From a virus (lineage: Duplodnaviria > Caudoviricetes): 64,000 nt of DNA. Numbering within the stretch: position 1 is the first letter of the stretch; every line of letters starts with the position of its first letter. The position numbers and the translations under genes are program-made. The DNA lies in the IMG/VR virus record IMGVR_UViG_3300046694_000619; one strand, given 5' to 3'. Of this stretch, positions 8,502 through 47,635 are shown one piece after another. The notes below the pieces were generated by a model, which was not told the DNA's origin, searched no databases, and saw only the letters and a program-made list of their open reading frames with translations.

Positions 8502-8882
8502 TCACGCGGTCACGATTTCGTGACCTTGGCAGAGCGCTTCCTTGCCGTCCTCATACACGTACACGTACCACTCCGGCCAGTCGGGCGCGGTGACAACCTT
8601 GAGCCCCGGGCCAAGGTCTTCGCCGGCTTCCGCGCGCGCAATGAGGCTAGGCAGCGTGCGCATCTTTGCGCTGAACAGCGTCAGAAAGTGGAGCACGCCG
8701 TCCCGCTCGACCGCCCAGTCAAAGGAGTCGAGCAGCGTGCGTCCAGGCACGGCCATTCCGTCGAACTCGGAAGCGGGCAGGCCTTCTGCATCAAAAAGCT
8801 CAGGATTTGATTCCCAAAGCGCCTCGAGCACCGGGCGGTGCAGACGAAACGCATAGCTCGACGCGTTTATCAGAACTTTCAT
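8502..8882 (-). CDS. Phage-type hypothetical protein (last gene of the PurA-like cluster)
   Basis: MKVLIN...LKVV..PD...W.V..YEDGKE pattern; AAGGA RBS. Confidence 0.65.
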   Translation of the reverse strand: MKVLINASSYAFRLHRPVLEALWESNPELFDAEGLPASEFDGMAVPGRTLLDSFDWAVERDGVLHFLTLFSAKMRTLPSLIARAEAGEDLGPGLKVVTAPDWPEWYVYVYEDGKEALCQGHEIVTA

Positions 8883-8899: not shown

Positions 8900-10150
8900 T
8901 CAGGCCGCGACGGCAACAGGCCTCACCGACGATTTGCGACAAGGCACAATCGTGTCGCGTGTTGGTCCCCACGAGCAAAACGCAACGGGCAACACCCGGT
9001 GGCTGGCCATGAAGACCAGTTCGTCCGGCGAGACTACGTGCGTTTCGGCATCCAGTCGCACGCGCGCCGCCGCGCCAACCTGGTCCAGACATGTCACAGC
9101 CGTCTGTGCGGTGATGTCGATGCGCGCGCCGAACGCTTCGGCTAGGTCAGACCCGATGGCAACTGCAAGCTGGTCCAGGTCCAGGTCGGCGAAGCGCAGG
9201 GACCCTTGGTACTCGTTCGGTTGATTCGTGAGGTCGACAACGCCTTCATAGGGCCGACCAGGCAACTCGTTTGCCAGCGGCCCGGCACCATGCCGCGTTA
9301 GGTACGCGCGGGTCACGTAGGTGACATCCAAGGCCTCGATGCCGGCTTCGCTTGCTACGTCGAGAACGTTGCGAAGCCCCGTGTTCGACCGGGTCACATA
9401 GGGGAATGCACCCTGATGCTGGTCGAGCAGCAGCCCCTGCGCGCCTTCGAACACGACATTGTCCGAGAGCAGGATAGGCGCCGCGGCACCCGACAACAAC
9501 GTGACATCACCCAGGAATTCCTGCGCGGCCTCGATAAAGGCGTCCACCAGCACGTCCGTTGTGCACAGCTTATGATGCTTGCCAAAATCCGGCAGCCCCA
9601 GTTCCTTGATGCGGACGGGCAGGTGGAAATCGCGAATCTCGATGAGTTTTGCGCGCAACGCGTCAACGTCTTGCAGGTCACCAGCCGTCAGCGCAAACGT
9701 GCCGGCTTCCATGCGCCCGATGGTCTCGCCAAAACCCATGCCGCAGCTGCCGTGTCGCTTCGCACCGCGAAAATCCTCGACGAGCTGGTTCACCAGCATG
9801 TCGAAGAAGGTGGTCACTGGCGCGCGCTCGTCCACGTAGAGCGTCGTAAGCTTGCCGAGGAGAGGCAGGAGTTTCGCGCGCTCCTTGAGATAAAGCATGG
9901 GATTGACCGCAAAGTGCCGCGACAGGTACGTCTTCGCGCCCGCGAACGTGCCGGCGCCGAAATGGCTGAAAGCATGTCGCGTGCCGTCCGGCGTGGTGAC
10001 GGTGTGACTCGCCTGGCAGCCACCGTTGAAACGCACGACGAGGCTGTTATCGCTCTGTGACGCGAAGTAATCGGTCATGAGACCCTTTCCTTCATCCCCG
10101 TAGTTCGCGCCGATGACCACTTTTGCCGAGCGCTTGCGAAGCTGTGTCAT
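8900..10150 (-). CDS. Divergent adenylosuccinate synthetase (PurA)-like protein
   Basis: GANYGDEGKG P-loop, RFNGGCQASHT, FEGAQGLLLD, PYVTRSNTG, YLTRHGAGP; the aspartate loop GATTGR is absent. Confidence 0.9.
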   Translation of the reverse strand: MTQLRKRSAKVVIGANYGDEGKGLMTDYFASQSDNSLVVRFNGGCQASHTVTTPDGTRHAFSHFGAGTFAGAKTYLSRHFAVNPMLYLKERAKLLPLLGKLTTLYVDERAPVTTFFDMLVNQLVEDFRGAKRHGSCGMGFGETIGRMEAGTFALTAGDLQDVDALRAKLIEIRDFHLPVRIKELGLPDFGKHHKLCTTDVLVDAFIEAAQEFLGDVTLLSGAAAPILLSDNVVFEGAQGLLLDQHQGAFPYVTRSNTGLRNVLDVASEAGIEALDVTYVTRAYLTRHGAGPLANELPGRPYEGVVDLTNQPNEYQGSLRFADLDLDQLAVAIGSDLAEAFGARIDITAQTAVTCLDQVGAAARVRLDAETHVVSPDELVFMASHRVLPVAFCSWGPTRDTIVPCRKSSVRPVAVAA

Positions 10151-10163
10151 GCTGGGTCTCCAG

Positions 10164-10454
10164 TTACAGAATTTCGCAGCCGTATTTCTGGCGGAACTGG
10201 ATAGCCAGCTCCTGAAATTCGGGCATATTGCCCATATTGGTTTTCACTTCAGCGAGTAACCCGGGCCGACCGTACGGAAGGTCGGCGTGCAACTCGAAGC
10301 AGAATCCTTCTGCCGGTGTTGGGTATTCGCTGTAAAGCTCGGCTGAAATGCCCTTGTCCAGCGCACCTCGCACCTGGCGAATTATGTTGGCCGCCCACGG
10401 CTTCCACTCTTCGGCGTCGCGTGGCCCAGCTCCCACCTTGTCATTCGTGTCCAT
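10164..10454 (-). CDS. Hypothetical protein
   Basis: GGAG RBS before ATG 10454 (MDTNDK); lies within the operon. Confidence 0.55.
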   Translation of the reverse strand: MDTNDKVGAGPRDAEEWKPWAANIIRQVRGALDKGISAELYSEYPTPAEGFCFELHADLPYGRPGLLAEVKTNMGNMPEFQELAIQFRQKYGCEIL

Positions 10455-10483
10455 CACTCGCTCCACTTCGAATTTTGGTGCGC

Positions 10484-10954
10484 TTAATCTGCGTAAGCGA
10501 TGATTCCGACTTCCCAAAATGCCTCGACGCCGAAATCCTTCTTCAACATGTCGACGAATTCACCGTATTCGCGCTGGGCCTTTTCGAGCATCGCCGTGCC
10601 GTCAAGGGAAGAAAAGAGCACCGGCTTGAACCCGTCTTCCGTGTCCTGCTCGAGCGTGAGGCCGTGCTCGTTGTGGTTCGGCAGCCAGATGTCGCCCTTC
10701 GGATGATTCTTTCCATATTCCGGGCAGTGCATGAAGTCCTCCCACGGGCCGGTGAGCTTGTGGATGGGAAACGGCTTCACCACTTCCGTGGGCACGTCCC
10801 GCTCAAGCACGGTACCGCCGCAGTTTCCGCAAAACTTCGCGGGCTTGCTGACCGCCGGCGCGTTGCAGTTGTTCGAGCAGCTGCGCTCAGACTTGGTCCC
10901 CTTCACGGGTGAAGGGGGAATGACCAGGTATGGGCCGATGAAAAACGACGTCAT
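10484..10954 (-). CDS. Zinc-ribbon protein
   Basis: CSNNC...KFCGNCG; AGGA RBS. Confidence 0.7.
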   Translation of the reverse strand: MTSFFIGPYLVIPPSPVKGTKSERSCSNNCNAPAVSKPAKFCGNCGGTVLERDVPTEVVKPFPIHKLTGPWEDFMHCPEYGKNHPKGDIWLPNHNEHGLTLEQDTEDGFKPVLFSSLDGTAMLEKAQREYGEFVDMLKKDFGVEAFWEVGIIAYAD

Positions 10955-10968
10955 AAAAATCCTGTTGA

Positions 10969-13242
10969 TTAAGCGAGGTAGTCAGCGATGAGCACTTCTG
11001 CGTCGTAGGCCGTGACCACTTTCTGGTCAGCCTTCACCGGCACGATGGCGGTCGGCAGCTTGCTTGTGAAAACGATGTCCGCTTCCAGCGCGGTGGCCAC
11101 CCGCTCGCCACGCGCGTTGACGTGGTCAGCGAGCAGGGCGCCTAGCGTCGGTCGAACCGGATTGACGATGCCGCGCGCCATCTGCGTCGTCAGGATGGTC
11201 GCCGTCTCCACAGCATTGAAGCCGCTGCAGCGTGCCGGCAGCACCAGGTCCGCCCATACGAACTGACGTCGCGCGATGTCCACATAGCCAACCAGGATGC
11301 GCTCGCCTGCCGCCGTCAGGTCGACCTTCTGGCGCACGGTGCGTGCGTCATAGATGGCGCCGCTCTGTTCGTCGACGCGCGACATCCAGCCCAGATACGC
11401 TTCGGGCATATCGCCGAAGTTCTGCTTGGTGTACGAAAATGCGACCAGCGCGATGTACGCGGCGTCAACAGGGAGTTTGCGGAAGTCGATGTCGATGAAC
11501 TCGCACGCGCCCTCCGGCGCCGACGTAATGTCGCCGCTGTGCGTCATGCCTTCCGCGCGCAACTGCGTGAAGCTGCAGTGCGTCACATAGTTGAAGCTTT
11601 CGTCGAGCACCGAGCAGGACAGGTCCAGGTCGGTACGGCCGATGGAGTAGGGCTCGCCACTCTTATCGAGGCCTTGCTCATTCCACCACAGGAACGCGCG
11701 CATGATGGAATCGGGGCCCAGGTCGATACGCGAGCCGCGACCTACCGTCAGCAGCGACTTCTGCGCGGTACGCTGCGCAAACGGAACGCTGATGCCGTCC
11801 AGTGCAGGGTCGATATACACCTTGCCCATCGCCGGCAGCTTGGCGAAGCGCGCCGCCAGCACGTCGGACACCGTTTTGACGACGAATTCGTTGGCGCTCT
11901 CGGTCAGCCGCGGCGAACCGTTCTGCGGCACCCACATGCGGGCAGCGCCGCCCTTCGGCGAGAACGCGCGCACACCATCCTGGTCCACCGCCATGCGGTG
12001 ACGCAGTTGCACGAGGACCGGCGTCGAGACCTTGTCGGCCACAGTTGCGAAGGCCTTGAGCACCGCTTCCTTGTTCGCGCCCGTCGCCTTGCGTACGGTT
12101 TCATGCAGCTTGCGAGCGAACACACCCGGACGCTGCACGAGAAGGTCGATGGCAGCCAGGGTGTTGCGCGATGCAAGGCGCGATTCCACCGTACCGGCCC
12201 AGCTCACGGGCATGTCGTTCTTGCGCAGCGCCGTGAAGTGCTCGTAGGCACGCTTGAAGCGGGCTTGATACTCGCCCGGATGCAGCGCTTCCCCCAGGCG
12301 TACCCATTGCTCGCGTCGCTGGAACATCTCCGAGCGCACCGACTCAGCGCTGAGGCTGTCGAGGAGGCCCAGCAACAGGCGGCGCAGGCCACGAGAGACC
12401 TTGCCAAAGCGCGGCGGCTTGGACAGCGTCAGGTCTGCATCCTTGAGGTTGGCCGCGCCGACAGCGGCGGCCAGGCGCAGCACGTCGGTTGGTGTCTGGA
12501 AGAAGCGCGCGAACTCAGCGGCTTCGAACGTCGCCGGCGTGTGCGTCAGCAGCCAGCCGCCGACCAGCGCGCGGTGTTCTTTTTGCGGGATGGTTGCCTG
12601 TTCCTTGAGCATTTCGAGCAGGCGGCCAGGATAGACTTCGCTGAAATACGAGAGCAGCTCGAGCGTCACTTCCTTGTTGGCCACCGACATCGAGGCATTG
12701 CCGTTGATAAGGCGCAGCAACTGGTCATAGACGGCCGTGCGCGGTGCAAGCGCCAGGGTGGTCGGCTTCATGTGCTCGAGCATCTTGAGCGCCGGTCGCT
12801 TTGACGCCGTGTACCGAGGCAGCACACGCACCCCCATCCAGTCGCCACGATAGTGCGCCCAGGCGTTAGAGAGCAATTCCGCGTCGGAAGCTTCGAGCAC
12901 CTGTTCCGGAAAATCCGGGTACATCGGGGAATACACGCGATGCGCGCCCAGAGCGTGGCTCAGGATGTGTACGAGGTTGGTGTGGACGTGAACGAGGTCG
13001 ACTTCGGGCATCCACGACAGCGTCAGGATAGCGTCCTGGCCGTAGACGAAGCCGAGATACTCGAGAGTCAGCTCGCTGTGAAGAGCGCGGTCCATGCTGG
13101 GACCGGGATTGCCGAGTGCGCTTTCGCGCTGCGAAGCAGCGTCAACGGCGGGCAGTGCCAGCTTGCCGTTGCGAACGAGAGCCGCGAGAATGTTGAATTC
13201 ACGGGTGTTAACTCGAAATCCTGCGTCAGCGAGCGTGAGCAT
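10969..13242 (-). CDS. Large helical-domain protein with C-terminal TerD-like domain (757 aa)
   Basis: YSPMYPDFPEQV, RREQWVRLGEALHPGEY, RPGVFARKL; TerD motifs DLDLS, HSGDITSAPEGACEFIDID, FVWAD. Start set at ATG 13242 after GAGGA. Confidence 0.85.
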   Translation of the reverse strand: MLTLADAGFRVNTREFNILAALVRNGKLALPAVDAASQRESALGNPGPSMDRALHSELTLEYLGFVYGQDAILTLSWMPEVDLVHVHTNLVHILSHALGAHRVYSPMYPDFPEQVLEASDAELLSNAWAHYRGDWMGVRVLPRYTASKRPALKMLEHMKPTTLALAPRTAVYDQLLRLINGNASMSVANKEVTLELLSYFSEVYPGRLLEMLKEQATIPQKEHRALVGGWLLTHTPATFEAAEFARFFQTPTDVLRLAAAVGAANLKDADLTLSKPPRFGKVSRGLRRLLLGLLDSLSAESVRSEMFQRREQWVRLGEALHPGEYQARFKRAYEHFTALRKNDMPVSWAGTVESRLASRNTLAAIDLLVQRPGVFARKLHETVRKATGANKEAVLKAFATVADKVSTPVLVQLRHRMAVDQDGVRAFSPKGGAARMWVPQNGSPRLTESANEFVVKTVSDVLAARFAKLPAMGKVYIDPALDGISVPFAQRTAQKSLLTVGRGSRIDLGPDSIMRAFLWWNEQGLDKSGEPYSIGRTDLDLSCSVLDESFNYVTHCSFTQLRAEGMTHSGDITSAPEGACEFIDIDFRKLPVDAAYIALVAFSYTKQNFGDMPEAYLGWMSRVDEQSGAIYDARTVRQKVDLTAAGERILVGYVDIARRQFVWADLVLPARCSGFNAVETATILTTQMARGIVNPVRPTLGALLADHVNARGERVATALEADIVFTSKLPTAIVPVKADQKVVTAYDAEVLIADYLA

Positions 13243-13271
13243 GTATGTCCTCGGATAGCGTATAAATAACG

Positions 13272-13445
13272 AACAGGCTACCCGCAGGAAAGCAATACGG
13301 GATGCCGTCTGGCATCCCGTATCACCACTTCTGGAGCAGGAGAGCAGCGCCGCTAGTTTCCAATGTGAGTTGAGTAGAAGGAAGCCGCGCAATAGCCTGC
13401 AAAACCTGTCAGCTGCCGAATACTTTCGTTCAACAACCGACTTGA
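13272..13445 (-). ncRNA. Candidate structured RNA or leader upstream of the TerD-domain gene
   Basis: Own sigma70 promoter; 5' hairpin; CAGGCTA/TAGCCTG closing stem; perfect 12-bp internal hairpin at 13295-13322. Confidence 0.6.
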
Positions 13446-13451
13446 GAGCAC

Positions 13452-13480
13452 AGTATATACCGATAACGCGCTCGCGTCAA
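13452..13480 (-). promoter_or_regulatory. Sigma70 promoter
   Basis: TTGACG-N17-TATACT on the minus strand. Confidence 0.75.
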
Positions 13481-13498
13481 CCGCGATTTTAGTATATC

Positions 13499-14404
13499 TC
13501 AGAATCGCGTCAATGCCGTTCCTGCGGCGCGTCCCGGCTGCAGCGCATTCAGTCCGCGTGCGACGACCATCGACGTGCTGCCCGACCACGACTTCACCGT
13601 GGCGTCGACACTGGTGCCTTCGATAACCTGAATGGTCGACACGATGAGCTCAGCCATCTTCGTGTGGTCCGACAGCGGCAGTGCGCGCTCGCCGAGCAGT
13701 GCCTTCCAGTTCGCCTTGACTGACGAATCGCACGAGTTGCTTTCTTCGACGAGCAGATGGAAGACGTGATAGCTGCGGCTGGCCATGGTCAGCAGCTCTT
13801 CCGAAGTCAGGTCGCGCTCGATGTCGTCACCAAACACACGCTGGACCTGCGCGCGAGTGAGCACGTTGTGCGGATTCTCGTCGCCGACCGTGAAAAGATA
13901 GCCCTTCTTCTTGCGCTTTTCGAAACAGTCGATGGACGTATGACGCGCGGCGAAGTACCACGGCAGGTGGTAGCTCTCGCCGCCGTTGCCCCCGCCATGG
14001 CCTTCCAGCCAGATTTGCGACAGCTGCGTAGCGATGCGGATGTCGGCCTCGAACTGCGTCACCTGCAGCGGCGCCTTGTCCGAGTACGCGTCACCTACAC
14101 CCATGCACGCGATATGCGGGTCGGCGACCGGCTTGCGCGCAATCAGTTCTTCGACGAGGACGCCCATACCCGTTCTCACCAGGACGTCCGCGAGTTTGCC
14201 CATTGAACCCGTTACGTCGCCAGCGACGATGATGGCAGTCGAATTCGGATTGGCCGCTGAGTCGCGCGATTCACGCATCGCGACACCGTGCGGATTGAGG
14301 TCCGGGTGCATGTGGTTTTGGCTGAACACCTGTGCGGTCGACTTCGTGCTTGTGCTCGACGAGAACGAATCCCAGTCGGTGGAACTCCAGTTGCTTGAAC
14401 CCAT
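13499..14404 (-). CDS. vWA-domain protein
   Basis: MIDAS DVTGSM, MGVGDA..D.APLQV.QFE, EGHGGGNGGESY, FTVGDE; AGGAG RBS. Confidence 0.85.
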   Translation of the reverse strand: MGSSNWSSTDWDSFSSSTSTKSTAQVFSQNHMHPDLNPHGVAMRESRDSAANPNSTAIIVAGDVTGSMGKLADVLVRTGMGVLVEELIARKPVADPHIACMGVGDAYSDKAPLQVTQFEADIRIATQLSQIWLEGHGGGNGGESYHLPWYFAARHTSIDCFEKRKKKGYLFTVGDENPHNVLTRAQVQRVFGDDIERDLTSEELLTMASRSYHVFHLLVEESNSCDSSVKANWKALLGERALPLSDHTKMAELIVSTIQVIEGTSVDATVKSWSGSTSMVVARGLNALQPGRAAGTALTRF

Positions 14405-14452: not shown

Positions 14453-14878
14453 TTAAGCTTCCGTCTTCCGGGATGTATCGCCAGCGAGCCGGCGCAGCGA
14501 CTGCTCGAAGTGACAGAGCCACTTGAATTTGTCGGACACCCACGAAAAGCTTTGGTTGGCGTCGCTCTGCGCCCGGTTAATCCATGACCCGTACTCAGTC
14601 GTGCCGGGTTGCGGCAACTGCAGCGGGATGTGCTGTGCGGCGCTCCAGCACCCGCGCATTGAATACGCAGAGAACGAGGCGCGCTCGTATCGCTTGCCGT
14701 ATTCGCCCGTCATGTAGGCGTCGAAGTCGGCGGCGGCCGGTTCATCCTTCGGCGCCAACGCCGTGTTCACGATGCGCGAGATGCGGTCACGCAGCTGCTG
14801 TGTGTCGCGGTACTGAACCGCCGTGTCGCGCAACTCGTTCACGAGCGCGGTGATTTCGTGGTCTTTGAGGTCTTTCAC
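14453..14878 (-). CDS. Hypothetical protein
   Basis: GTG start overlapping the upstream stop (GTGA); AAGGA RBS. Confidence 0.6.
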   Translation of the reverse strand: MKDLKDHEITALVNELRDTAVQYRDTQQLRDRISRIVNTALAPKDEPAAADFDAYMTGEYGKRYERASFSAYSMRGCWSAAQHIPLQLPQPGTTEYGSWINRAQSDANQSFSWVSDKFKWLCHFEQSLRRLAGDTSRKTEA

Positions 14879-15945
14879 AGCGCAATTCCTTGTCGCGGGT
14901 CGTACAGCCTGTCATGGGACAGGTCCATCGGGACGAACTTGCGCGGGCCGAACGCCTCGATGAGAACGCGCGACTGCCAGTCCTTGTAAGTGGCCACCGC
15001 GCTCTGATGCGTGCTCAGCTGAAGCCAGTCGACCAGGGCGGCCGGAACAGACGCGTCCTTGGCCAGCCGAACACCGGTTGAGTCGCCGAGCAGCTCACGC
15101 CCGAGCGCCTGAATCATTTCCATGTCCGTGCGGGTGTCGCCGACCTTCTTCTGGAGCACGGCTGGCGGCGCGCACAGCATCATTCGTTGCGAGGCCGCCT
15201 TCATCGGAGCGCCCAGCGGCGTGGCAAACCACCAGCCACCAAAGAGGTGAGCGGTGTGCTCCTCCGGCGAAATGAAGACCGTGTCCGGGCCGATAGCGTT
15301 GTGCGAGACCTTGCCTTGAATCTCGAGGTAGCAGGCGATGTTCAGCAAGCGGCTGAGGACCCACGCGACATGCGCGGCAGGCATCTTTCCCTTGTAGAAC
15401 TCGAGCACGTCCTGAAGGAGCATCTCCTTGGCCGTTTTCTTGAGGACCAGCATGGCGCCGGTCGCCGTTTCGACCTTCTTCACCACTTCCGGGAAGTAGC
15501 GCGAGAACTCCTTGCGCATCGGGTCGTTGGCGTAGGACAGGCGCGCGATGCTGCGTTGCGCGTCGTCGAGCAGGTCCAGGTTGTCGGTGGAGATGTCGAA
15601 CGCCACTACGGTGCGGCCGACGTACATCGTTCCAACCTCGAGCGCCACCTTGCGTGAGAAGCGCAGCTCAAACTGCGTTCCGTCCGTGCCGCGGATGGCG
15701 AGCAGTCCCGGTGTCTCCCACGTGCCTTCGGCGGCCTTGCGCTTGGCCGCTTTGTTCAGCTTCTTGAGCCGGTCGAACACGTCCCATCCGCGTGGACCGG
15801 AGCCGTGGTCAGGATGCCACCTCATGAAAAGCTTGCGAGCTTCCTTCTCCGCCGCCGCCGCGCTCGAAAACAGACGCTCGGGCGCATCTTCAGGGATGGC
15901 CAGGATTTCGTCAGCAGTGAGGGCGGTTTGGTCGGCTTCGGTCAT
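14875..15945 (-). CDS. J-domain-like + kinase-fold (pseudokinase) protein
   Basis: N-terminal RWHPDH (HPD); HVAWVLSRLLNIACYL...SHNAIGPDTVFI...LFGGWWF aligns with the kinase catalytic and DFG regions but lacks the Asp residues. Confidence 0.7.
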   Translation of the reverse strand: MTEADQTALTADEILAIPEDAPERLFSSAAAAEKEARKLFMRWHPDHGSGPRGWDVFDRLKKLNKAAKRKAAEGTWETPGLLAIRGTDGTQFELRFSRKVALEVGTMYVGRTVVAFDISTDNLDLLDDAQRSIARLSYANDPMRKEFSRYFPEVVKKVETATGAMLVLKKTAKEMLLQDVLEFYKGKMPAAHVAWVLSRLLNIACYLEIQGKVSHNAIGPDTVFISPEEHTAHLFGGWWFATPLGAPMKAASQRMMLCAPPAVLQKKVGDTRTDMEMIQALGRELLGDSTGVRLAKDASVPAALVDWLQLSTHQSAVATYKDWQSRVLIEAFGPRKFVPMDLSHDRLYDPRQGIAL

Positions 15946-16105
15946 GTCCAGTTAGTTCTTAGTTGCGATTTACGAATAAGTATAGGTGAGCCATTGGGTG
16001 GAATGCAAGACCTTTCGTTCCTCCGGAATACCGGATGTCAAATCGAGCGCATGGTTGGCCAAATACGTAAATAACAGTATACTATATAACGATGGAGAGA
16101 AGCGA

Positions 16106-16606
16106 ATGTTTGAACCAATGGCGGCCGCGACTCGCGCGATTCAGTTGGCGCGCGCCGGCACACCCCTATATTTCGAAGATGGACCAGTCGGAGACATCGA
16201 ACGCGATGCGCTCGCCGAAGGTCTGCCGCTTTGGCTCGAGGCCAAGGCAGGGCATCTGTATCTCGCTGCAAATGCTTCGTGGCCCGGCCTGTTCAAACTC
16301 GGATGCACCCGTCGGAGCATTGCGTCACGCATGCGTAGCTTGAGCGGCGCCGGAGTTCCGACACCATGGGTGGCGGCACATACCTGGACTGTGCACGACG
16401 CCCATGGGCTGGAAGCGCTGGTGCATCGGGAGTGCGAGCAGTGGCGCGTCGAAAAGGAACTGTTTCATGCGCCGGTGACAACTCTAATTGCGACTGTTGA
16501 TTCAGTTGTCGCTCGAGAACGCGAAGCCCTCACAAAAGAGCTGTCGTTATACCTTCCTCAGAAATTCATGGGGAGCCTGCAGCCGCTTACGGATGAGCAA
16601 ATATAG
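16106..16606 (+). CDS. GIY-YIG / T5orf172-type nuclease-domain protein
   Basis: LYLAAN..PGLFKLGCT...R.R.L...GVPTP...LEALVH......RV.KELF. Confidence 0.75.
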   Translation: MFEPMAAATRAIQLARAGTPLYFEDGPVGDIERDALAEGLPLWLEAKAGHLYLAANASWPGLFKLGCTRRSIASRMRSLSGAGVPTPWVAAHTWTVHDAHGLEALVHRECEQWRVEKELFHAPVTTLIATVDSVVAREREALTKELSLYLPQKFMGSLQPLTDEQI

Positions 16607-18049: not shown

Positions 18050-19813
18050 ATGAACAATTTAAATTCGACCAACATGCACGCACTCACGCTTCAGGCGCAC
18101 TTTGATTACAGTTACGTGCCGCGCACGGGAGACAACGCTGAAGGCGCCGATGTCACGGTGGCCTTCGCGACGGACTTCAACACGGCCGGCGAAAAGCTCA
18201 CGAAGCGTAAAGCAGGACCTCGCTATATCGGTATTCCCTTCGGGATTGATGTTTCCGAGGCGGCGGCGCGGCTTGTGGCGTTCATTGTCGGACGCAATGG
18301 CAGCACGCTGAACGTGGCGGGCAACGGCATCTACACGCTCACGGAGCACGGTGTCAATCAGGAGCGGGCCAATGCGTGGGTGCACAGCGTTCTCGCGGCG
18401 GTATCGCGAGGCGTGAAGCTCACGCTCGTTCGCTCAGGCGGGCAGACGGGCATCGACCAGGCTGGCCTGGTGGCGGCCCTCGCGCTTGGCATTCCTGCAC
18501 TGGGCTACTACCCGGCGCGCTTTCGTCGACGCAACGCGCAAGGCACGGAAGTGACGGCTACAGCCGCCGCGATTCGTGCCGAGCTCGAGGTGCAGGCTGA
18601 CGCGCTGAAGAAGAGCAAAGGCTGGGACTTTCACCAGGACGGGTCGCTGCCGACCGAACTCGAGAAGCAGGTCTTCGTGTTCGGCTCTAACCTGGCCGGA
18701 CGTCACGGCAAGGGTGCTGCGGCTGTCGCCAAGGAGCAGTTTGGCGCGCAGCCGGGTGTTGGTCCGGGGCGTCAGGGTCAAAGCTACGGCATCCCCACAA
18801 AGGATGGTCGGCCGCTGCCGGGAATGGAGCGTCCATCGTTCAACGACCCGAAGCAGACCCTCTCCCTGGCTGCCATCAAGCCCTTCGTCGACGATTTCAT
18901 CGAGTATGCGAAAGCACATCCCGATGAGCAGTTCTTCGTCACGCGTGTCGGTTGCGGTCTGGCCGGCTACGAAGACAAGGAGGTCGCGCCGATGTTCGCC
19001 GCGGCACCTTCGAACTGCAGCTTTCCGGAAGACTGGAAGCCGTGGCTCTCGGAGGCTCAGGACGCGCCGAAGGTCGCGCAAGCCATCAACATCTGGAGCG
19101 GTGCTTCGGGGTTGGGCGGCGCGCTGACCAACATGTCGGAGCGGGCGCGGGAGAAGGGCGGCATCAAGCACTCGTATCCCGTGAAGGTCAATGGTGTGAC
19201 TTACCCTGATTCCGAGGCGGCCTATCAGGCGCTGAAGGCTCCGGGTGAGGACGATTACAACGACGGCCTGATGATTGACCTCATCGCGCTGAAGTTCGTC
19301 CAGAACACCAAGCTGTATGACCTCGTGACGAAAAACGGTGGTGTGGCATGGCTGGAAAAATGCAGTCATTTCACGCAGGCTAAATCGGAGCGGTTCCAGG
19401 CCTGGGAAGGTCAGGGACACGGGTCCCGGTTCATCCGGAACCTGATTCACGGCTACGTGAAGGCAAAGACCGGCCGCGGTCCCGTTACCCGGGTCGTGCA
19501 TGTGAAGGAGGCTCCGTTTGACGTCTATATTGGGCGCCAGATGGGTTCGGACTACCCGCACTCCCCGTGGCATAACCCGCACAAGGTCGACAGCTCTCGC
19601 TCGCGCAATACGGCCGTCGCAGACTTCGCCGAAGACTTTTCGGGCAACCAGGAGTTACAGGCTGACGTGTACCTGCTTAAGGGCAAAACCCTGGGCTGCT
19701 GGTGCAAGGACCGCTCTGATGTCAACCGGCTATGTCACGGCGATGTGCTTGCCGCGCGCGCAGACGGGCGAGAATGGGTCGCTCCGCAAGAAGCTCAAGG
19801 CTGTCTGTTCTGA
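18050..19813 (+). CDS. Multidomain protein: SLOG(YpsA/MoCo-carrier-like) + macro-like (A1S_2505-type) + NADAR-like + DUF4326
   Basis: LNVAGN and SGGQTGIDQAGL; VFVFGSNLAGRHGKGAA...YGIPTK...FFVTRVGCGLAG; LTN...YPDSEAAYQ; DVYIGR...SPWHNP...LKGKTLGCWC...CHGDVL. Confidence 0.8.
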   Translation: MNNLNSTNMHALTLQAHFDYSYVPRTGDNAEGADVTVAFATDFNTAGEKLTKRKAGPRYIGIPFGIDVSEAAARLVAFIVGRNGSTLNVAGNGIYTLTEHGVNQERANAWVHSVLAAVSRGVKLTLVRSGGQTGIDQAGLVAALALGIPALGYYPARFRRRNAQGTEVTATAAAIRAELEVQADALKKSKGWDFHQDGSLPTELEKQVFVFGSNLAGRHGKGAAAVAKEQFGAQPGVGPGRQGQSYGIPTKDGRPLPGMERPSFNDPKQTLSLAAIKPFVDDFIEYAKAHPDEQFFVTRVGCGLAGYEDKEVAPMFAAAPSNCSFPEDWKPWLSEAQDAPKVAQAINIWSGASGLGGALTNMSERAREKGGIKHSYPVKVNGVTYPDSEAAYQALKAPGEDDYNDGLMIDLIALKFVQNTKLYDLVTKNGGVAWLEKCSHFTQAKSERFQAWEGQGHGSRFIRNLIHGYVKAKTGRGPVTRVVHVKEAPFDVYIGRQMGSDYPHSPWHNPHKVDSSRSRNTAVADFAEDFSGNQELQADVYLLKGKTLGCWCKDRSDVNRLCHGDVLAARADGREWVAPQEAQGCLF

Positions 19814-29918: not shown

Positions 29919-30314
29919 ATGAGCACCAACACCATTTTTCAAAAACTCGGTCTTGTTGTCGTGAGCGAGGACAAGGGCGTCTACCAACTGCGGCCGCTCG
30001 AGGAACATGGCGACCGGAAAAGCGATTTGGTGGGACTGCTGTTCTCCGCAACCCCGCTCGACAAGCAGCCGGCCCATATTCAGCTGTTCCTGCAGGAAAG
30101 CTCGGCTGAAGTGCCGGCCGCGCGCATCGTCTACCACTGGCAAACGCTGGACGCCCGGCGCTTCGCCGAATCTGGACTCGAGCCGCGTGAACTGGAGGTA
30201 TCGGCGGACCGCATTCCCGAACGCGCCAACGTGAAGAATTTCACTCGCCCCGACGGCGTGCGCATGCGCCACGCGGTGACGCTGACCACAGGAGAGGTTG
30301 TTTGCTACAACTGA
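29919..30314 (+). CDS. Hypothetical protein
   Basis: AGGAG RBS; coupled to the next gene. Confidence 0.65.
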   Translation: MSTNTIFQKLGLVVVSEDKGVYQLRPLEEHGDRKSDLVGLLFSATPLDKQPAHIQLFLQESSAEVPAARIVYHWQTLDARRFAESGLEPRELEVSADRIPERANVKNFTRPDGVRMRHAVTLTTGEVVCYN

Positions 30315-31213
30315 TTTCGAAGCTCGCGCCTCCCTGGAGCGGCGCCGTCACCGCCGCGCTCGTCGGCGATGCTTTTGGTGTTCCTCACGAATTCAAGCAG
30401 CCCAAAGCCATTCCGCCCGCGCATGAGTTGGCGATGGTGATGCCTGCGGCCTATCCGAAGACTTACGCCAGCGTGCCGTACGGCATCTGGTCGGACGATG
30501 GCAGCCAAACGATGGCTCTGCTCGACGCGTTGCTCGCGAGGAACGGGCTTTACAGCGCTGACCTGTTCGGCCGCAACATGCTGGCCTGGCTACACGAGGC
30601 AAAGTATCAGCCCGGCGGCCGGGTCTTCGATTGCGGGAACCAGACGCTTGATGCGCTGACGCAGCTCGAGCGCGGTCTTCCGGTCGAATTCGACGAGTCG
30701 CGGTGCGGCAATGGCAGCCTGATGCGCGTGCTGCCTGTCGCAGCGCTGCCAGATTCGCTTGGCATCAATCCGGTTGATGCCCTCCGTTTCGCAATGGAGC
30801 AGTCTGCGCTGACGCACCCGCAGGCGCTCGCGCGCGTGAGCTGCGCGTTGTACGTCCAACTCGCCTGGCTCGCGCAGCCCGGCAGCCGGGGACTCCGCGC
30901 GCGAATGCCGGAAGCTGCGAGAGCACTCAAGGAATCGGGCGTGCTGACGGCGCGCGACCAGACCGCGCTGTCCACCATCCTTGCGTTCGGCGAGCAGCAG
31001 CCAACGAACTCGGGCTACGTCGTGGATAGCCTTTGGTCTGCGATTGATGCGGTCGACCACGCCAGCAGCCTGAGCGACGCGCTTTGTCGGGCGGTGAGTC
31101 TGGGTTCGGACACGGACACCGTCGCGTGCATCGCCGCTGGCCTGGCTGCCCTGGTGTTCGGATGGGATGAGACGGCGCACGGATGGCGCCGCCAGATGAC
31201 GATGCTGACGTAG
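30302..31213 (+). CDS. ADP-ribosylglycohydrolase (DraG/ARH family, Tri1-like)
   Basis: GDAFGVPHEF, VPYGIWSDDG, VFDCG.QT, GNGSLMR, QSALTH, DTDTVACIA. Confidence 0.9.
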   Translation: MLQLISKLAPPWSGAVTAALVGDAFGVPHEFKQPKAIPPAHELAMVMPAAYPKTYASVPYGIWSDDGSQTMALLDALLARNGLYSADLFGRNMLAWLHEAKYQPGGRVFDCGNQTLDALTQLERGLPVEFDESRCGNGSLMRVLPVAALPDSLGINPVDALRFAMEQSALTHPQALARVSCALYVQLAWLAQPGSRGLRARMPEAARALKESGVLTARDQTALSTILAFGEQQPTNSGYVVDSLWSAIDAVDHASSLSDALCRAVSLGSDTDTVACIAAGLAALVFGWDETAHGWRRQMTMLT

Positions 31214-34564: not shown

Positions 34565-34589
34565 CACAATGTGATTGTCAAGCTATACT
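34561..34589 (+). promoter_or_regulatory. Sigma70 promoter of the tmRNA gene
   Basis: TTGACA-N17-TATACT. Confidence 0.85.
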
Positions 34590-34592
34590 AGC

Positions 34593-34860
34593 ATTCATCG
34601 TTGTAATTCCTCTGGAATTGAAATTCGGCGGAAAAGGGTTCGACTCCCTTCACCTCCACCAAATGCGCATTTGTCAAGTACGTATTTGATGGGGGTGCCC
34701 AGGTTTCGACGTCGTGCGGAGATGAAGGCGGCAACGCGGGCAGGCGACTTCCCGGTGAGCTTCGGCTTGCGAACAGAGCAAAATCGTTAAATGCAAACGA
34801 TGAATCGTACCTGATGGTCGCTTGACCGTCCGGGGCCGCGCCTGCCCTGTGAAATAAATG
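34593..34860 (+). ncRNA. ssrA: Circularly permuted (two-piece) tmRNA, tag ANDESYLMVA
   Basis: Acceptor piece AAGGGTTCGACTCCCTT-CACCTCC-ACCA ends at 34661, upstream of the 5' piece GGGGGTG...TTCGAC at 34691; G3.U70 pair; resume codon GCA at 34793 and TGA at 34823-34825. Confidence 0.92.
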
Positions 34861-34864
34861 CGTG

Positions 34865-34899
34865 GAAACCCAGGCCTCGCGGTCTGGGTTTTTCTTTTT
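34865..34899 (+). terminator. tmRNA terminator
   Basis: GAAACCCAGGCC-TCGC-GGTCTGGGTTTT followed by a T-run. Confidence 0.75.
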
Positions 34900-34939
34900 G
34901 AGCTATACCATGTGTCCTAGCCCCGTTGCCCAAAAGACC

Positions 34940-36955
34940 ATGCTGTTCAAGAACAAGATTTCAATCGCGGTTGCTTCCGCGCTGTTGCTGGCCGCCGGTC
35001 ACGCTATCGCGTCCGACTATTATGTCGTTGTGCCTGTCCCGAACCATACGGCGGATTCATCGGCCATCAACGTGACACTGGGCGGGGCGTCGCTACCGGC
35101 AGGGCAGGTCGGAATGCCGTATCAAGGCTTCGACCTCAAACCGTTGCTCTCGGTCACAGGTGACGCGACCTACACGGGTTATGGCGTGCGATGGAGCATC
35201 GCTTCTGGAAGCCTGCCCGCTGGGCTCACGCTCAACAGCAACGGCACCATCAGCGGCACCCCGGCCGCGGGCGGCACGTTCTCGTTTCAGGTGCTGGCCG
35301 CCTATAAGACGAAGGCCGGCCAGCAGGCGTATCAGATTCTCGTTGCCGACATCAAGGTCTCGCTCGATGCGGCTTCGCCGCCACAAGCCGTTGTGGGCGC
35401 TGCATACAGCTATGACCTGCGGCCGCTGCTGTCGGTCACAGGCGATGGCGCATACACGGGCCAGAACGTCACGTGGTCGATGGTCTCCAGTTCGCTGCCC
35501 GCGGGCCTGTATCTCACCTCCGATGGTTTCATCGGTGGCACGCCGAGCACCTCTGGAACTGGAAGCCTTACCGCGCGCGCGACGTACAGAAATAGCAGTG
35601 GCCAACAGACTTACCAGGTGGTGTCTGTCTACAGCATCAGCGTGGTGTTGGGCTCGAGCACGCCGACCCAGGCGATTGTCGGCCAGGCGTACACGTTCGA
35701 CGCGAAGCCTTTGCTGACCGTCACAGGCGACCCCGCATACACTGGAGACGGTGTGACGTGGGGCATCGCGTCTGGCAGCCTGCCAGCAGGGCTGTCTCTG
35801 TCGGCAAACGGCGTCATCACCGGGACACCGACCGCGGCAAGTAGTGGGCCGGTCACCCTGCAGGCGACGTATCGCGGCACCAATGGTCAGCAGACGTACC
35901 AGCTGGTCTCGCTCAACATCGTCGTCAACCTGGGGACGGCCACACTGCCGCTCGCCAACGTCGGCGCAAGCTACTCGTACGACTTCAAGCCCCTTCTTGG
36001 CGTAACAGGGGACTCGAGCTATGCCGTATCGGCGGTGCAATTCCACGCAGGCGCGCTCCCTCCCGGACTCAGCCTGAACGCGACAGGCGTGCTTTCGGGC
36101 ACGCCCACCGTGACTGCGTCTGCACAGAGTTTCTCGGTCGTGGCCGACTATCGCGGGCAGGATGGCACACAGCAGTACGCCATCACCGTAAACCCGGCGT
36201 TCTTTAATTTCAGCCCGACGATTGCAGCCTCTACGGCCAACTATAACCTCTACAACGCTGCGCGAGCCGCCGGCTGGGACGGCGTGGCGCCGCTGAAGGC
36301 GACGGTGACCGTCAACGCCGGTGTCTACGTTGGCGGCTCGTCGACGGGGAGCTACGCGTTCTCGACGGGTACGGGTTTTCCGGCACAGACCAGCCTCAAT
36401 CTGATTAACAACGGTGTCATCGTCGGCAAGGGCGGCGATGGCGGCAGCTGGGGCTTCGGCGGTGGCAATGGCGGCCCGGCTATGCTGGCGCAGTACCCAA
36501 TCAAGGTAACCAACAACGGCACCATCGCGGGTGGCGGTGGGGGCGGTGGCGGCTCCAACCGTGCGACGGTCGCCAACGTGCTGGCAGGCGGCGCGGGTGG
36601 CGGAGGCGGGCAGGGCTATGGAACCTCGGCTGGAGGAGCCGCGGACCCGGCTTTTTCGGGCACGCAATACCCGCAAGGACAACCGGGCTTGACTGGCAAT
36701 ATCACCACGCCGGGACTGGGCGGTACCGGTACTCAATCCGGCATGTTCCCAAACCAGTTTCAGGCGCCTTGGTATGCAATTTCGGGCAACGGAGGCAACG
36801 GCGGACTACTCGGGCAGGCGGGTGCTGCGTCGACGGCCGGACAGTGGGTGCCTAACGTCGGTAGCCTTTCAGGCGGTGCAGCGGGCTATTCCGTCGTCGG
36901 AGCGGCCAACGTAACCTGGTCGGCGACGGGCTCCGTGCTCGGTCCACGACAGTAA
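34940..36955 (+). CDS. Secreted adhesin: 4 putative-Ig repeats + Gly-rich C-terminal domain
   Basis: Signal peptide, DYYVVVPVPN, four SGSLPAGL.L...G.I.GTP-type repeats, tip with NNG.I.G.GG.GG glycine runs. Confidence 0.85.
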   Translation: MLFKNKISIAVASALLLAAGHAIASDYYVVVPVPNHTADSSAINVTLGGASLPAGQVGMPYQGFDLKPLLSVTGDATYTGYGVRWSIASGSLPAGLTLNSNGTISGTPAAGGTFSFQVLAAYKTKAGQQAYQILVADIKVSLDAASPPQAVVGAAYSYDLRPLLSVTGDGAYTGQNVTWSMVSSSLPAGLYLTSDGFIGGTPSTSGTGSLTARATYRNSSGQQTYQVVSVYSISVVLGSSTPTQAIVGQAYTFDAKPLLTVTGDPAYTGDGVTWGIASGSLPAGLSLSANGVITGTPTAASSGPVTLQATYRGTNGQQTYQLVSLNIVVNLGTATLPLANVGASYSYDFKPLLGVTGDSSYAVSAVQFHAGALPPGLSLNATGVLSGTPTVTASAQSFSVVADYRGQDGTQQYAITVNPAFFNFSPTIAASTANYNLYNAARAAGWDGVAPLKATVTVNAGVYVGGSSTGSYAFSTGTGFPAQTSLNLINNGVIVGKGGDGGSWGFGGGNGGPAMLAQYPIKVTNNGTIAGGGGGGGGSNRATVANVLAGGAGGGGGQGYGTSAGGAADPAFSGTQYPQGQPGLTGNITTPGLGGTGTQSGMFPNQFQAPWYAISGNGGNGGLLGQAGAASTAGQWVPNVGSLSGGAAGYSVVGAANVTWSATGSVLGPRQ

Positions 36956-44470: not shown

Positions 44471-47400
44471 TCAGTGAAAATCGCGGCTGTGAGTCGACAG
44501 GTCGCCTAGCAGGTGGGACATGTCGACGAGGCGCTGGGCAATCAGGTGCCGCACGCCACCTTCACTCTGCCAGGTCCCATACACCGCGAGAAGCGAAGCG
44601 CCTAGCGCCTCCTTGCGATGTCGTTCGAGCACCGACTGCCACACAATCACGTTCACGTTGCCCGTCTCGTCCTCGAGCGTCACGAACATCACGCCGTTTG
44701 CCGTGCCCGGCCGCTGCCGCCCGACAACCAGTCCGCACCCGCGCGCGAGCCGGTTGTTCGGATACCTCGCAAGCGTCGACGCGGGCATCAGCCTATGCTC
44801 GCGCAACGCAGGTCGGAGCAGGGCAAGCGGATGCCGGCCAAGCGTGAGTCCCGTCGACTGGTAGTCGCTCACGATGTCGTCGACTTCCGACGGCGCGCCA
44901 AGCTCAGGTGTCGCGTCATCAACGCCTGCACCGGCCAGGATGTCCTTGTCGGGGATGGCCGCTGCAGATTGCCACAAGGCTTCGCGCCGGTTCCCCGCGA
45001 GGGAGGCCAGCGCGTTGGCCGCGGCCAACACCTGAAGGTCGTGGCGGTCGAGTTGCGCGCGCCGCGCCAGGTCGCTTACGGAAGAGAACTGCCTGACTGC
45101 GCGAGCATTCTCAATGCGCTCCGACGCGCCGTCGCGCATGCCGCGCAACAGCGACAGCCCGAGCCGAACCACTGGCCTTGGCTGCCCATCCGGATGCTCA
45201 AGCACGGAGTCCCAGGCGCTTATCGTGACGTCGACCGGCGCCACCCTCACGCCGTGACGCTTTGCATCCTGCACGAGTTGCGAGGGCGAATAGAACCCCA
45301 TCGGTTGGGAGTTCAGCATCGCAGCAAGGAACGCCGCAGGCTCGTGGCGTTTGAGCCAGCTGCTCGCATAGACAAGTAACGCAAAGCTCGCGGCATGGCT
45401 TTCGGGAAAGCCGTACTCTCCGAAACCCTTGATTTGCTCGAAGATGCCGTCGGCGAAGCTGCGCTCATAGCCGCGCGCGAGCATCCCGTTCACTATGCGG
45501 TCGTAGTATTTTTCAAGTCCGCCTTTACGTTTCCACGCGGCCATCGCGCGCCGGAGCTGGTCCGCTTCACCCGGCGAGAAGCCCGCGGCAAGGATGGCGA
45601 CCTGCATTACCTGCTCCTGGAAAATCGGCACGCCCAGCGTTCGGCCCAGCGCGGTCTCCAGGTCCGCACTCGGATAGCTTACCGGCTCAATACCCTGGCG
45701 CCGGCGAAGATATGGATGCACCGCGCCGCCCTGAATCGGACCGGGTCGCACGAGCGCGACCTCAATCACAAGGTCGTAGAAGGTCTTCGGCTTCAGCCGC
45801 GGGAGCATCGACATCTGCGCGCGCGACTCGATTTGAAAAACGCCCACGGTATCTGCGCGGGAAATCATGTCGTAGGTCGCCTTGTCCTCGACCGGAATAT
45901 CCTGCATCTCGAAGCGCTCGCCGCGCTCCTCGGACACGATGTCGAGTGTGCGCCGGATGGCTGACAGCATTCCGAGCGCAAGGATGTCGACCTTCAGCAG
46001 CCCGAGCGCCTCGAGGTCGTCCTTGTCCCATTGAATCGCGCTGCGCCCCGTCATCGCTGCATTTTCAATGGGGACCAGGCGCGTGAGCTTGCCGCGGCTG
46101 ATAACGAATCCACCCGAGTGCTGCGAGAGATGACGCGGGAAATTCAGTATCTGGCCGGCGAGCGACGCCCACGCCGCAATCAACGGATTCTCTGGGTCCA
46201 GGCCCGATTCCGCAAAACGGTTGAGCAGGTCGTGACTGCTATCGAACCATTGATGATTTTTGGCGACACGGTCAACGATTTGCGGGTCGATGCCGAGCGC
46301 CTTCCCGGTTTCGCGCAGCGCACCTCGCGGTCGATATGTGTGCACGGCCGCCGCGATGGCGGCGCGATTGCGGCCGTACTTTTCATAGATGTACTGGATG
46401 ACGATTTCACGTTTTTGATGCTCGAAATCGACGTCTATGTCGGGCGGCTCGTTTCGCTCAGGGCTCAGGAATCGCTCGAACAACATGGAGCTGCGCGAGG
46501 GGTCAACTTCGGTCACGCCCAGGCAATAACAGACCGCAGAATTGGCGGCGGAGCCGCGTCCCTGGCAAAGGATGTGCTCGCTGCGAGCGAACCGAACGAT
46601 GTCGTAAACCGTCAGGAAATACGGCTCGAAATTCAGTTGCCGGATTATCTTCAGCTCGTGCTCAATCTGCTCCTGCACTGCATGCGGGATACCGTTTGGA
46701 AAGCGGCGATGCGCGCCGATGTACGTCTCCTGACGCAGATAGTCTTCGTGTGTGATGCCGGGCGGCACAAGTTCGTCGGGATACTCGTAGCGAAGCTCAT
46801 CCAGTGAGAACGTACAGCGCTCGAGGATGCTGAGCGTCTCTGACAGCGTGTGCTCCGGATACAGGTTGGCCAGCCGCAGACGGGACCGCAGATGCTGCTC
46901 GGCGTTCGGCGCGAGGTCATAGCCACACTCGGCAATAGGCCTGCCGACGCGTATGGCCGTCATCGTGTCCTGCAACGGCTTCCTCGAGCGCACATGCATG
47001 ACGACCTTTCCCGTGGCCACCACGGGAACCCGATACCGGTCGGCAATGTGTTCGACGATGCCGCGATGAATGTCATCCATCGCGCGCTGGTGCAATGTGA
47101 GTCCGACGTAAGCACGCGTGGGAAACGTCTCGTTCATCCACTCGAGCTGCGCCGCGAGCGCGGCCTCCTTTGCCGGGAAGTCGGGCACGAGGATGGCGAG
47201 GCAGTCGGGCATGCCGCGCAGGTGCGCATAGTCAGGCTCCGGCCGTGCGATGTCCTGTGGCGTGAGCAGGTAGCTGCCTTTCTCCGCACGCATGCGACCG
47301 AGCGTGATGAACTCCGACAGATTGCCGTAGCCTTCACGATTCTGCGCAAGCAGAATCAGACCGAAAGCGGGGCGTTTGTCTGCATGTACCAGCTCGAAGT

Positions 47401-47620: not shown

Positions 47621-47635
47621 GGCGACTGCCTGACC

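Follow-up and report, generated by a model that had tools for sequence, protein, structure and literature searches.

This study concerns a gene of the adenylosuccinate synthetase (PurA) family, and the operon to which it belongs, in a 64,000-nucleotide stretch of DNA (64 kb; hereafter the window) held in IMG/VR as the virus record IMGVR_UViG_3300046694_000619. The gene, hereafter the ligase gene, occupies positions 8900-10150 of the minus strand. An earlier note on this DNA, made from the sequence without database searches, had described its product as a PurA paralogue with an intact catalytic core and altered substrate loops.

Results

A gene for a PurA-family ligase

The reading frame of the ligase gene was open, and a GGAG ribosome-binding site was located 8 nt 5′ of the ATG. 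The deduced protein matched PF00709 (adenylosuccinate synthetase) with an E value of 5.9e-42, in an alignment that covered only profile positions 1-288 of 416, and it matched Escherichia coli PurA chains with an E value of ca. 4e-24. This homology to PF00709 is far beyond chance. The Pfam matches and the sequence matches in the PDB were confined to the N-terminal two thirds of the ligase. The C-terminal third has diverged and lacks the segment corresponding to E. coli residues ca. 345-400, and the nucleotide-base motifs TCLD and S-x-GP-T-R are retained. When the structure of the ligase was modelled with AlphaFold (AF2) using 42 relatives as input, the mean predicted local distance difference test (pLDDT) score was 92.7. 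The best Foldseek match of the model was E. coli PurA (1cg3), with a template modelling (TM) score of 0.77, and the PurZ and PurZ0 structures scored 0.58-0.62. A tblastn search with E. coli PurA detected no second PurA copy within the window.

The strings quoted in the earlier note were all present in the translation, namely GDEGKG at residues 18-23, QASHT at 46-50, GSCGMGFG at 134-141, the aspartate-loop string LTNQPNEYQGSLR at 307-319 and CLD at 354-356. Against E. coli PurA, they aligned where the note had assumed, that is, with the P-loop containing Asp13, with His41, with the inosine monophosphate (IMP) loop GTTGRGIG, with the aspartate loop GATTGRRRR and with TKLD.

A third PF00709 clade beside PurA and PurZ

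PF00709 is usually read as PurA alone, with phage PurZ as the exception. The view that the ligase is neither of the two was supported by NCBIfam scores under the cut-offs, by Asp rather than Ser in the P-loop and by placement in a separate clade. The ligase scored 123.7 bits against the PurA equivalog model NF002223 (cut-off 402), 110.7 bits against the PurA equivalog model TIGR00184 (cut-off 395.55) and 50.1 bits against the PurZ model NF038379 (cut-off 300). A maximum-likelihood tree was constructed from 26 sequences, which comprised PurA of E. coli and of five genomes bearing relatives of the ligase, three Ser-type PurZ-like phage proteins and 17 relatives. The tree yielded three clades, and the window protein was found in the third (17 rows) with support of 100/98. 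Canonical PurA proteins from genomes that also carry the paralogue fell outside the paralogue clade. Each of the five genomes searched had a single full-length canonical purA (580-636 bits) alongside a single copy of the paralogue (138-178 bits); because the canonical gene coexists with it, the paralogue is an extra gene and not the housekeeping enzyme.

The P-loop of the ligase reads G-D-E-G-K-G, and that of the aligned PurZ-like phage proteins reads G-S-E-A-K-G or G-S-T-G-K-G. Ser was reported at the Asp13 position in all 147 phage PurZ/PurZ0 sequences (PMC12884076); the same study counted 481 phage PF00709 proteins, of which only these 147 were classified as PurZ, and the remainder of ca. 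330 was not addressed. Among the operon genes and the scanned flanking open reading frames (ORFs) of the window, no Pfam or PHROG family corresponding to the companions DatZ, MazZ/DUF550, DutZ/DmtZ or DpoZ was found. In public records, genes of the clade are labelled as adenylosuccinate synthetase, as PurA-like or as '2-aminooxy adenylosuccinate synthetase' (phrog_1211, a PurZ-type label), the last of which is attached to Asp-type phage members such as NC_023725.1, NC_070967.1 and PP083314.1. Since the P-loop Asp, the loop type, the score, the TM score and the clade all differ from those of PurZ, the PurZ-type label on the records of cluster C mycobacteriophages, Vibrio phages and Rhizobium phages looks like a mis-transfer, probably carried over from PHROGs.

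An exhaustive profile-free search returned 3,408 clusters at 50% identity (E <= 1e-30), each nearer to the query than canonical PurA is. Among named organisms, the closest relatives (65-75% identity) came from Burkholderia ubonensis, B. multivorans and Paraburkholderia, and when one genome per species was scanned, at least 557 species of bacteria proved to have a relative. The bacterial neighbourhood counts given below refer to the best 80 of these at least 557 relatives, which span Pseudomonadota, Clostridia, Acidobacteriota, Chlorobiota, Melainabacteria, Planctomycetota, Bdellovibrionota and Myxococcota. A relative of the ligase was also present in 238 phage records, comprising ca. 200 cluster C mycobacteriophages, 10 Rhizobium phages (ca. 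200 kb), six Vibrio phages (ca. 190 kb) and a few others. Longer relatives (759-833 amino acids; P0271-P0277) differed only by intein/LAGLIDADG insertions, with no fusion among them that hinted at a substrate; the intein insertions in some members fit a gene under functional constraint. The clade is a third branch of PF00709 beside PurA and PurZ, and it is large, old and strongly selected.

Conserved catalytic core and rebuilt substrate loops

Alignments of 82 and 42 sequences were prepared, and the clade, PurA and the PurZ-like proteins were then set side by side. The clade retained G-D-E-G-K-G (Asp13 and Lys16 in PurA), G-H-T (His41), F-E-G-A-Q-G-L-L-L-D (Gln224) and V-T (Thr239), together with T-R-x-G-x-G-P, the Asp of T-x-L-D (Asp333, which is the guanine-reading residue in PurA) and S-x-G-P-T-R. 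D19, H49 and Q238 of the ligase, which are equivalent to Asp13, His41 and Gln224, were invariant across the family alignments. The residues that bind Mg and phosphate were likewise retained, in the window copy as well as clade-wide. The earlier note had claimed that the P-loop Asp and the catalytic His are kept in the ligase, and both proved to be invariant across the clade. Because the catalytic motifs of PurA are kept, GTP-driven O-phosphorylation followed by displacement by an amine would be the expected chemistry.

Other positions differed from PurA, and their altered form was itself conserved. Asn38 of E. coli PurA was replaced by Gln in the clade (Gln46 in the ligase). The IMP loop I-G-T-T-G-R-G-I-G-P became H-G-S-C-G-x-G-(I/F)-x-E-T, with Ser135/Cys136 of the ligase at the positions of Thr128/Thr129; the region of Arg143 was rebuilt and contained a new invariant Arg (E-T-x-x-R); and Val273 was replaced by an invariant His. 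Taken together, the changes at Asn38, Thr129, Val273 and around Arg143 suggest that the nucleotide is probably held differently at its 5′-phosphate. In addition, Lys331 was replaced by Cys (T-K-L-D to T-C-L-D).

The aspartate loop G-x-T-T-G-R-x-R-R (Thr300/301, Arg303 and Arg305) was replaced clade-wide by T-N-x-P-N-x-x-Q-G-x-L-R-F, in which one Arg aligns; the sequence in the ligase is T-N-Q-P-N-E-Y-Q-G-S-L-R-F. Whereas the Asp-using groups, PurA and the PurZ-like proteins, have a Thr-rich loop (T-x-T) and two adjacent Arg residues, the loop of the clade is Asn/Gln-rich and has one Arg. The PurZ-like proteins are at least as distant from PurA as the clade is, yet they have kept T-x-T and the two adjacent Arg residues. 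This difference in the loop is the strongest argument that the sequences offer against L-aspartate, which is probably not the amine used. The proposal of the earlier note that the same chemistry is applied to a different amine and/or nucleotide is strengthened by this comparison with the Asp-using groups, and it may reasonably be held from the aligned residues.

The window copy differed only mildly from the clade consensus, at 4-5 positions, for example by Ser for Gly in Q-A-S-H-T, a change also seen in 6 of the 80 relatives. This copy looks like a working member of the clade. The ligase is a genuine relative of PurA and is probably active.

Phage members of the clade showed variation of their own. 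The member from mycobacteriophage Nappy (L003, 5995-7323) has G-D-A-G-K-G at the otherwise invariant P-loop. The member from Vibrio phage Va1 (L002, 8986-10098) has Lys in place of the single loop Arg, and T-W-Y-N in place of T-C-L-D, by which the guanine-reading Asp is lost. Such variation hints that a different nucleotide donor may be used in some phages.

Conserved neighbours of the ligase gene

The ligase gene had been treated in the earlier note as an isolated oddity, and its most telling features, namely an obligate vWA partner, the J-domain pseudokinase, control by NrtR and a spread among both bacteria and large phages, had been missed. In 72 of the 80 bacterial loci, a vWA gene bearing a metal ion-dependent adhesion site (MIDAS) was located directly upstream of the ligase gene. 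The other eight loci were not scorable, seven being cut just upstream of the ligase gene and one (L063) having the ligase ORF itself cut short. A J-domain pseudokinase gene was present upstream of the vWA gene in 48/80 loci, and a gene for the Nudix/winged-helix regulator NrtR was adjacent in 37/80. Clustering of all ORFs of the 80 loci revealed no further conserved partners, and the next clusters were generic (ABC, GGDEF, LysR and SDR).

The vWA and ligase genes were often just a few bases apart. Phages of Rhizobium and Vibrio had, immediately 5′ of the ligase gene, a gene 41-47% identical to the vWA gene of the window, and in mycobacteriophage Nappy the order was a kinase gene, a gene for a protein with the same vWA-type domain, a small ORF and the PurA-like gene. 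The vWA gene was found in ca. 218 phage records, which are nearly the same set as the 238 with the ligase gene. Genes of NAD (nicotinamide adenine dinucleotide) metabolism were close to the module in two cases. In Geomonas it follows nadE-pncB-pncA and NrtR, and in a Rhizobium phage it lies a few genes after phosphoribosyltransferase-like and nicotinamide mononucleotide (NMN) adenylyltransferase/Nudix genes.

The vWA partner encoded in the window had no Pfam match, and a profile of the vWA alignment matched nothing among the PDB sequences. Its AF2 model had a pLDDT of 88, and the top Foldseek matches were all vWA or integrin beta-I domains, including that of NorD. The family alignment showed the MIDAS (D-x-T-G-S, T-Q-F-E and G-D-E), a G-G-G-G-N loop, a C-terminal G-x-V-R-F tail and a nearly invariant N-terminus, M-G-x-x-R-W-x-x-x-D-W. 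vWA proteins with a MIDAS, such as those of the MoxR-vWA activases, often serve as adaptors by binding an acidic residue of their client.

W-H-P-D of the J-domain was nearly invariant in the alignment of the third partner, and the window copy reads W-H-P-D-H. J-domains are known to recruit Hsp70/DnaK. In the alignment of its kinase-like domain, H-N-A-I-S (H-N-A-I-G in the window copy) replaces HRD and L-L-G-G-W-W-Y replaces DFG, so the catalytic Asp residues are absent. Because the Asp residues of both motifs are missing, this protein is a pseudokinase.

Organisation of the operon in the window

The operon runs on the minus strand in the order J-domain pseudokinase, 141-amino-acid ORF, vWA, TerD-like, Cys-rich 156-amino-acid ORF, small ORF, PurA-like ligase and 126-amino-acid ORF (Table 1). 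The vWA and ligase genes, which are directly adjacent in the 72 bacterial loci mentioned above and in phages (those of Rhizobium and Vibrio and the cluster C mycobacteriophages), are here separated by three inserted ORFs. A nearly identical gene arrangement was found at the B. ubonensis locus.

Table 1. Coordinates of the operon genes and of the predicted operator in the 64-kb window.
Feature	Position	Strand	Basis
126-amino-acid ORF, 17 nt 3′ of the ligase stop, last co-oriented gene	8502-8882	-	Sequence
PurA-family ligase, third clade (non-PurA, non-PurZ), 416 amino acids	8900-10150	-	PF00709 match, AF2 model, tree
Small ORF just upstream of the ligase gene, ca. 96 amino acids from the ATG at 10454	10164-10517	-	Sequence
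Cys-rich (zinc-ribbon-like) ORF, 156 amino acids, lineage-specific	10484-10954	-	Sequence
Large helical and TerD-domain protein, SCO0854/MXAN_6230-related	10969-13392	-	NF041916, 365 bits (cut-off 600); weak TerD match; phrog_33734
vWA-fold partner, 301 amino acids, intact MIDAS (D-V-T-G-S)	13499-14404	-	Fold search, alignment; phrog_2971
Small ORF, 141 amino acids, GTG start overlapping the J-domain pseudokinase stop	14453-14878	-	Read from sequence
J-domain (HPD) and kinase-like domain fusion, 356 amino acids, first operon gene	14875-15945	-	Alignment; phrog_3043 kinase; nearest Atlas clusters DnaJ and Pkinase
NrtR-operator-like 20-mer (predicted)	15956-15975	.	Weight matrix, best match in the 64-kb window

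The TerD-like gene, whose true start is probably the ATG near 13242, was considered as part of the module core and rejected, as it occurs in a different set of phages and in 0/80 bacterial loci, although it is present in B. ubonensis. Together with the non-conserved small ORFs, it can be read as an insertion, specific to this lineage, that separates the vWA gene from the ligase gene. The 141-amino-acid ORF resembles by eye a 109-amino-acid ORF of the B. ubonensis locus and is absent from other lineages. The Cys-rich ORF had no family match and no counterpart in the B. ubonensis locus or in phage Nappy. No family match was obtained for the small ORF upstream of the ligase gene either, and it is unlike the small ORFs that occupy this position in B. 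ubonensis and phage Nappy. The 126-amino-acid ORF likewise had no family match and is not conserved elsewhere. None of the operon proteins matched the PADLOC defence-system models.

A gap of 256 nt (13243-13498, minus strand) separates the vWA stop from the likely ATG of the TerD-like gene and contains short hairpins. A promoter-like sequence, TTGACG-17-TATACT, was found at 13480-13452, preceding the TerD-like gene. A gene for a T5orf172/MUG113 (GIY-YIG-like) protein (15986-16606, plus strand) is divergent from the operon, and the same arrangement is seen in B. ubonensis.

A predicted NrtR operator upstream of the operon

NrtR represses genes of NAD metabolism, and ADP-ribose releases it. A palindromic weight matrix was built from the intergenic regions of bacterial loci with divergent NrtR, and its consensus was close to TTGTTATTTGCAAATAACAA. 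The best match in the window is located 11-30 nt 5′ of the start codon with which the operon begins, and a TATACT −10-like hexamer precedes it. It scored 17.0, whereas the maxima were 15.1 in 20 shuffles and 13.7 in 280 control windows from bacterial loci, and it was identical to the Massilia box at 18 of 20 bases. Judged by its context, the module is under NrtR in bacteria and apparently also in this window. Another palindrome, near 16065 (GTTAT...GTTAT), was rejected as an operator, its matrix score being only 3.9.

Other features of the element

The window looks like part of a very large element, phage-like or plasmid-like, from a Burkholderia-type host, and no near-identical DNA was found in phage or plasmid collections. 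A further ADP-ribose-processing gene on the element encodes an ADP-ribosylglycohydrolase (PF03747, E value 3e-45; 30302-31213, plus strand). A 587-amino-acid protein (18050-19813, plus strand) contains a YpsA/SLOG segment in circularly permuted form and has DUF4326 at its C-terminus. At 44471-49099 on the minus strand, a DnaE-type Pol III alpha subunit (1049 amino acids) follows an ImuB-like IMS protein (487 amino acids), and the pair resembles an error-prone polymerase cassette of the ImuB/DnaE2 type carried by a mobile element. A LigD-type fusion of an ATP-dependent DNA ligase with a primase-polymerase domain is encoded at 52619-54544 (plus strand). ARAGORN called a permuted transfer-messenger RNA (tmRNA) at 34569-34916 (plus strand) with the tag peptide ANDESYLMVA. 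This call, which may be false or may mark a genuine tmRNA borne by the element, overlaps the start of a 697-amino-acid He_PIG/GP38 tail-fibre-like ORF (34862-36955).

Discussion

Proposed function of the module

On balance, and with slightly more conviction than doubt, we propose that the clade consists of GTP-dependent ligases that join a 6-oxopurine-type nucleotide to a non-aspartate amine, and that they serve in an ADP-ribose-induced response maintaining NAD or adenine nucleotides, which large phages have taken up alongside NAD-salvage genes. The ligase would phosphorylate the lactam oxygen of the nucleotide, as PurA does, and an amine, probably other than L-aspartate, would then displace the phosphate. 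From the gene context, it acts as one unit with the MIDAS vWA protein, usually together with the J-domain pseudokinase, whose HPD motif suggests that it would recruit DnaK. Since NrtR is released by ADP-ribose, the module would be switched on during NAD consumption, and its role would be a step, hitherto undescribed, in maintaining NAD or adenine nucleotides. Large phages carry the module, as does this Burkholderia-type element, next to their genes for NAD salvage and ADP-ribose processing.

Several observations weigh against this proposal. The link of the module to NAD rests on guilt by association, and less than half of the loci (37/80) have NrtR next to the module. The proteobacterial box was found at only 4 of the 34 loci without adjacent NrtR; loci of other phyla probably use other box variants. 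Within the 64-kb window there is no NrtR gene, and the box is a single site with two mismatches to the nearest bacterial box. The internal promoter-like site before the TerD-like gene could uncouple the ligase from NrtR here. The roles of the vWA and J-domain proteins are inferred from their folds only. Finally, one Arg of the aspartate loop survives, which may still allow the use of Asp.

That surviving Arg, together with the retention of all catalytic and GTP-binding residues, would also suit an adenylosuccinate synthetase after all, which is the name used in public records. The ligase would then be a stress-regulated isozyme with drifted loops that converts IMP and Asp with GTP and supplies AMP for NAD resynthesis upon an ADP-ribose signal; NAD resynthesis does consume ATP. 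We regard this as distinctly unlikely. The scores of 111-124 bits are far from the equivalog cut-offs of ca. 400, a canonical purA is present in 5/5 genomes, and the vWA partner is left unexplained. Moreover, T128/T129, R131, R303, T300/T301 and K331 are all replaced, and since the replacements are themselves conserved, selection for something else is suggested; the PurZ-like proteins, equally far from PurA and Asp-using, have kept the T-x-T/RR loop. At the other extreme, the ligase could lack catalytic activity and control the vWA/J-domain pair as a GTP-binding switch or scaffold. Its kinase-like partner is a pseudoenzyme, and pseudoenzymes are common in such modules, but the catalytic Asp and His, Gln224 and the substrate-loop residues are invariant at ca. 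40% identity, which is not expected of a mere switch, and we consider this very improbable. The occurrence of the vWA/ligase pair in ca. 220 large phages, and the richness of the window in genes handling ADP-ribose and NAD (the ADP-ribosylglycohydrolase and the SLOG/DUF4326 polyprotein), would be consistent with a mainly counter-defensive function in phages and this element, in which a deaminated purine nucleotide (an IMP, dIMP or ITP-type product formed by deaminase-based defences) or another nucleotide signal is removed or converted and the bacterial copies are secondary. However, many free-living bacteria, from at least eight phyla, have the module on the chromosome and linked to NrtR, which speaks for a function in housekeeping or stress and against an invention by phages, and PADLOC gave no match; we give this explanation a small probability.

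The conserved features of the vWA protein raise the alternative that the nucleotide is attached to a protein. The attacking amine would be the N-terminal Gly of the vWA protein after removal of Met, or a residue of a client held by the MIDAS, the product would be a protein with an N6-linked purine nucleotide, and the J-domain and DnaK would assemble or recycle the complex. The nearly invariant M-G start and the R-W...D-W motif at the vWA N-terminus agree with this, as do the strict adjacency of the vWA and ligase genes, often few bases apart, and the fact that genes of small-molecule pathways are not conserved around the module. An Asn/Gln-rich amine loop that has lost one carboxylate-binding Arg would also suit a peptide backbone better than a dicarboxylate. 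On the other hand, the conserved N-terminus is perhaps a mere docking motif, it is of low confidence in the model, and we know of no PurA-family enzyme that modifies a protein. Attachment to a protein therefore seems unlikely. A broader claim, to which we attach limited though not negligible credence, is that the clade is a new enzyme class of the PurA superfamily, with something other than a free amino acid as its amine. Such an enzyme would either place a GTP-activated purine nucleotide on the N-terminal glycine of the vWA protein or on a MIDAS-held client, giving a protein-N6-purine mark in response to the ADP-ribose signal, or re-aminate a hypoxanthine-containing analogue of NAD or ADP-ribose in one step, as a form of NAD repair.

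We found no paper in the literature on this PF00709 clade or its module. New here are the Burkholderia-type variant interrupted by TerD, the position of the operator and the loop comparison with the Asp-using PurZ-like proteins. If the reaction of the proposed GTP-dependent ligase is found, a step would be added to NAD or adenine-nucleotide maintenance in many bacteria, a gene set of some 220 large phages, including the well-studied cluster C mycobacteriophages, would be explained, and a widespread PurA/PurZ-type annotation error in public records would be corrected. The module is compact (two to three genes) and several of its carrier hosts and phages are cultivable, so it is directly testable.

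Comparison with known systems

The ligase has in common with PurA (EC 6.3.4.4; E. coli structures 1ADE and 1CG0-1CG4) the fold and the motifs GDEGKG, GHT, FEGAQG, VT (Thr239), TR-x-G-x-GP, L-D and S-x-GP. It differs in lacking a C-terminal insert of ca. 55 residues, in forming its own clade and in occurring alongside a real purA, and its gene is always paired with a vWA gene and is linked to NrtR instead of belonging to the purine regulon. PurZ/PurZ0, the succino-amino-deoxyadenylate synthase of Z-genome phages (6FM1, 7ODX and 7VF6), is likewise a phage-borne PF00709 paralogue with a retuned nucleotide pocket. The PurZ-like proteins, however, retain the T-x-T/RR aspartate loop and have a Ser P-loop, and the ligase has neither.

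With the NrtR regulons and the phage NAD reconstitution pathways NARP1 and NARP2, the module shares the regulator NrtR and the neighbourhood, which consists of NAD-salvage genes in Geomonas and the Rhizobium phage and of ADP-ribose processing in the window. In contrast to those systems, none of its three proteins resembles a known NAD-pathway enzyme, and we know of no reaction of NAD metabolism that needs PurA-type chemistry.

The TerY-P triad and TerD systems, reportedly described by Anantharaman, Iyer and Aravind in 2012, also cluster vWA, kinase-like and, as in this window, TerD-domain proteins. No family match to the PP2C phosphatase of the triad was found among the operon ORFs. Unlike in TerY-P, the kinase of the module is inactive-looking and carries a J-domain, TerD is not in the module of the 80 bacterial loci or of the phages, and to our knowledge the Ter systems described so far include no PurA-like enzyme. 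In the MoxR AAA+/vWA pairs (NorQ-NorD and CbbQ-CbbO), the gene for a MIDAS vWA adaptor similarly stands beside those for an enzyme and for a protein that brings in an ATP-driven chaperone. By this analogy, the module, which lacks a MoxR ATPase, would employ instead the J-domain pseudokinase, which would recruit DnaK, and the client would be the PurA-like ligase.

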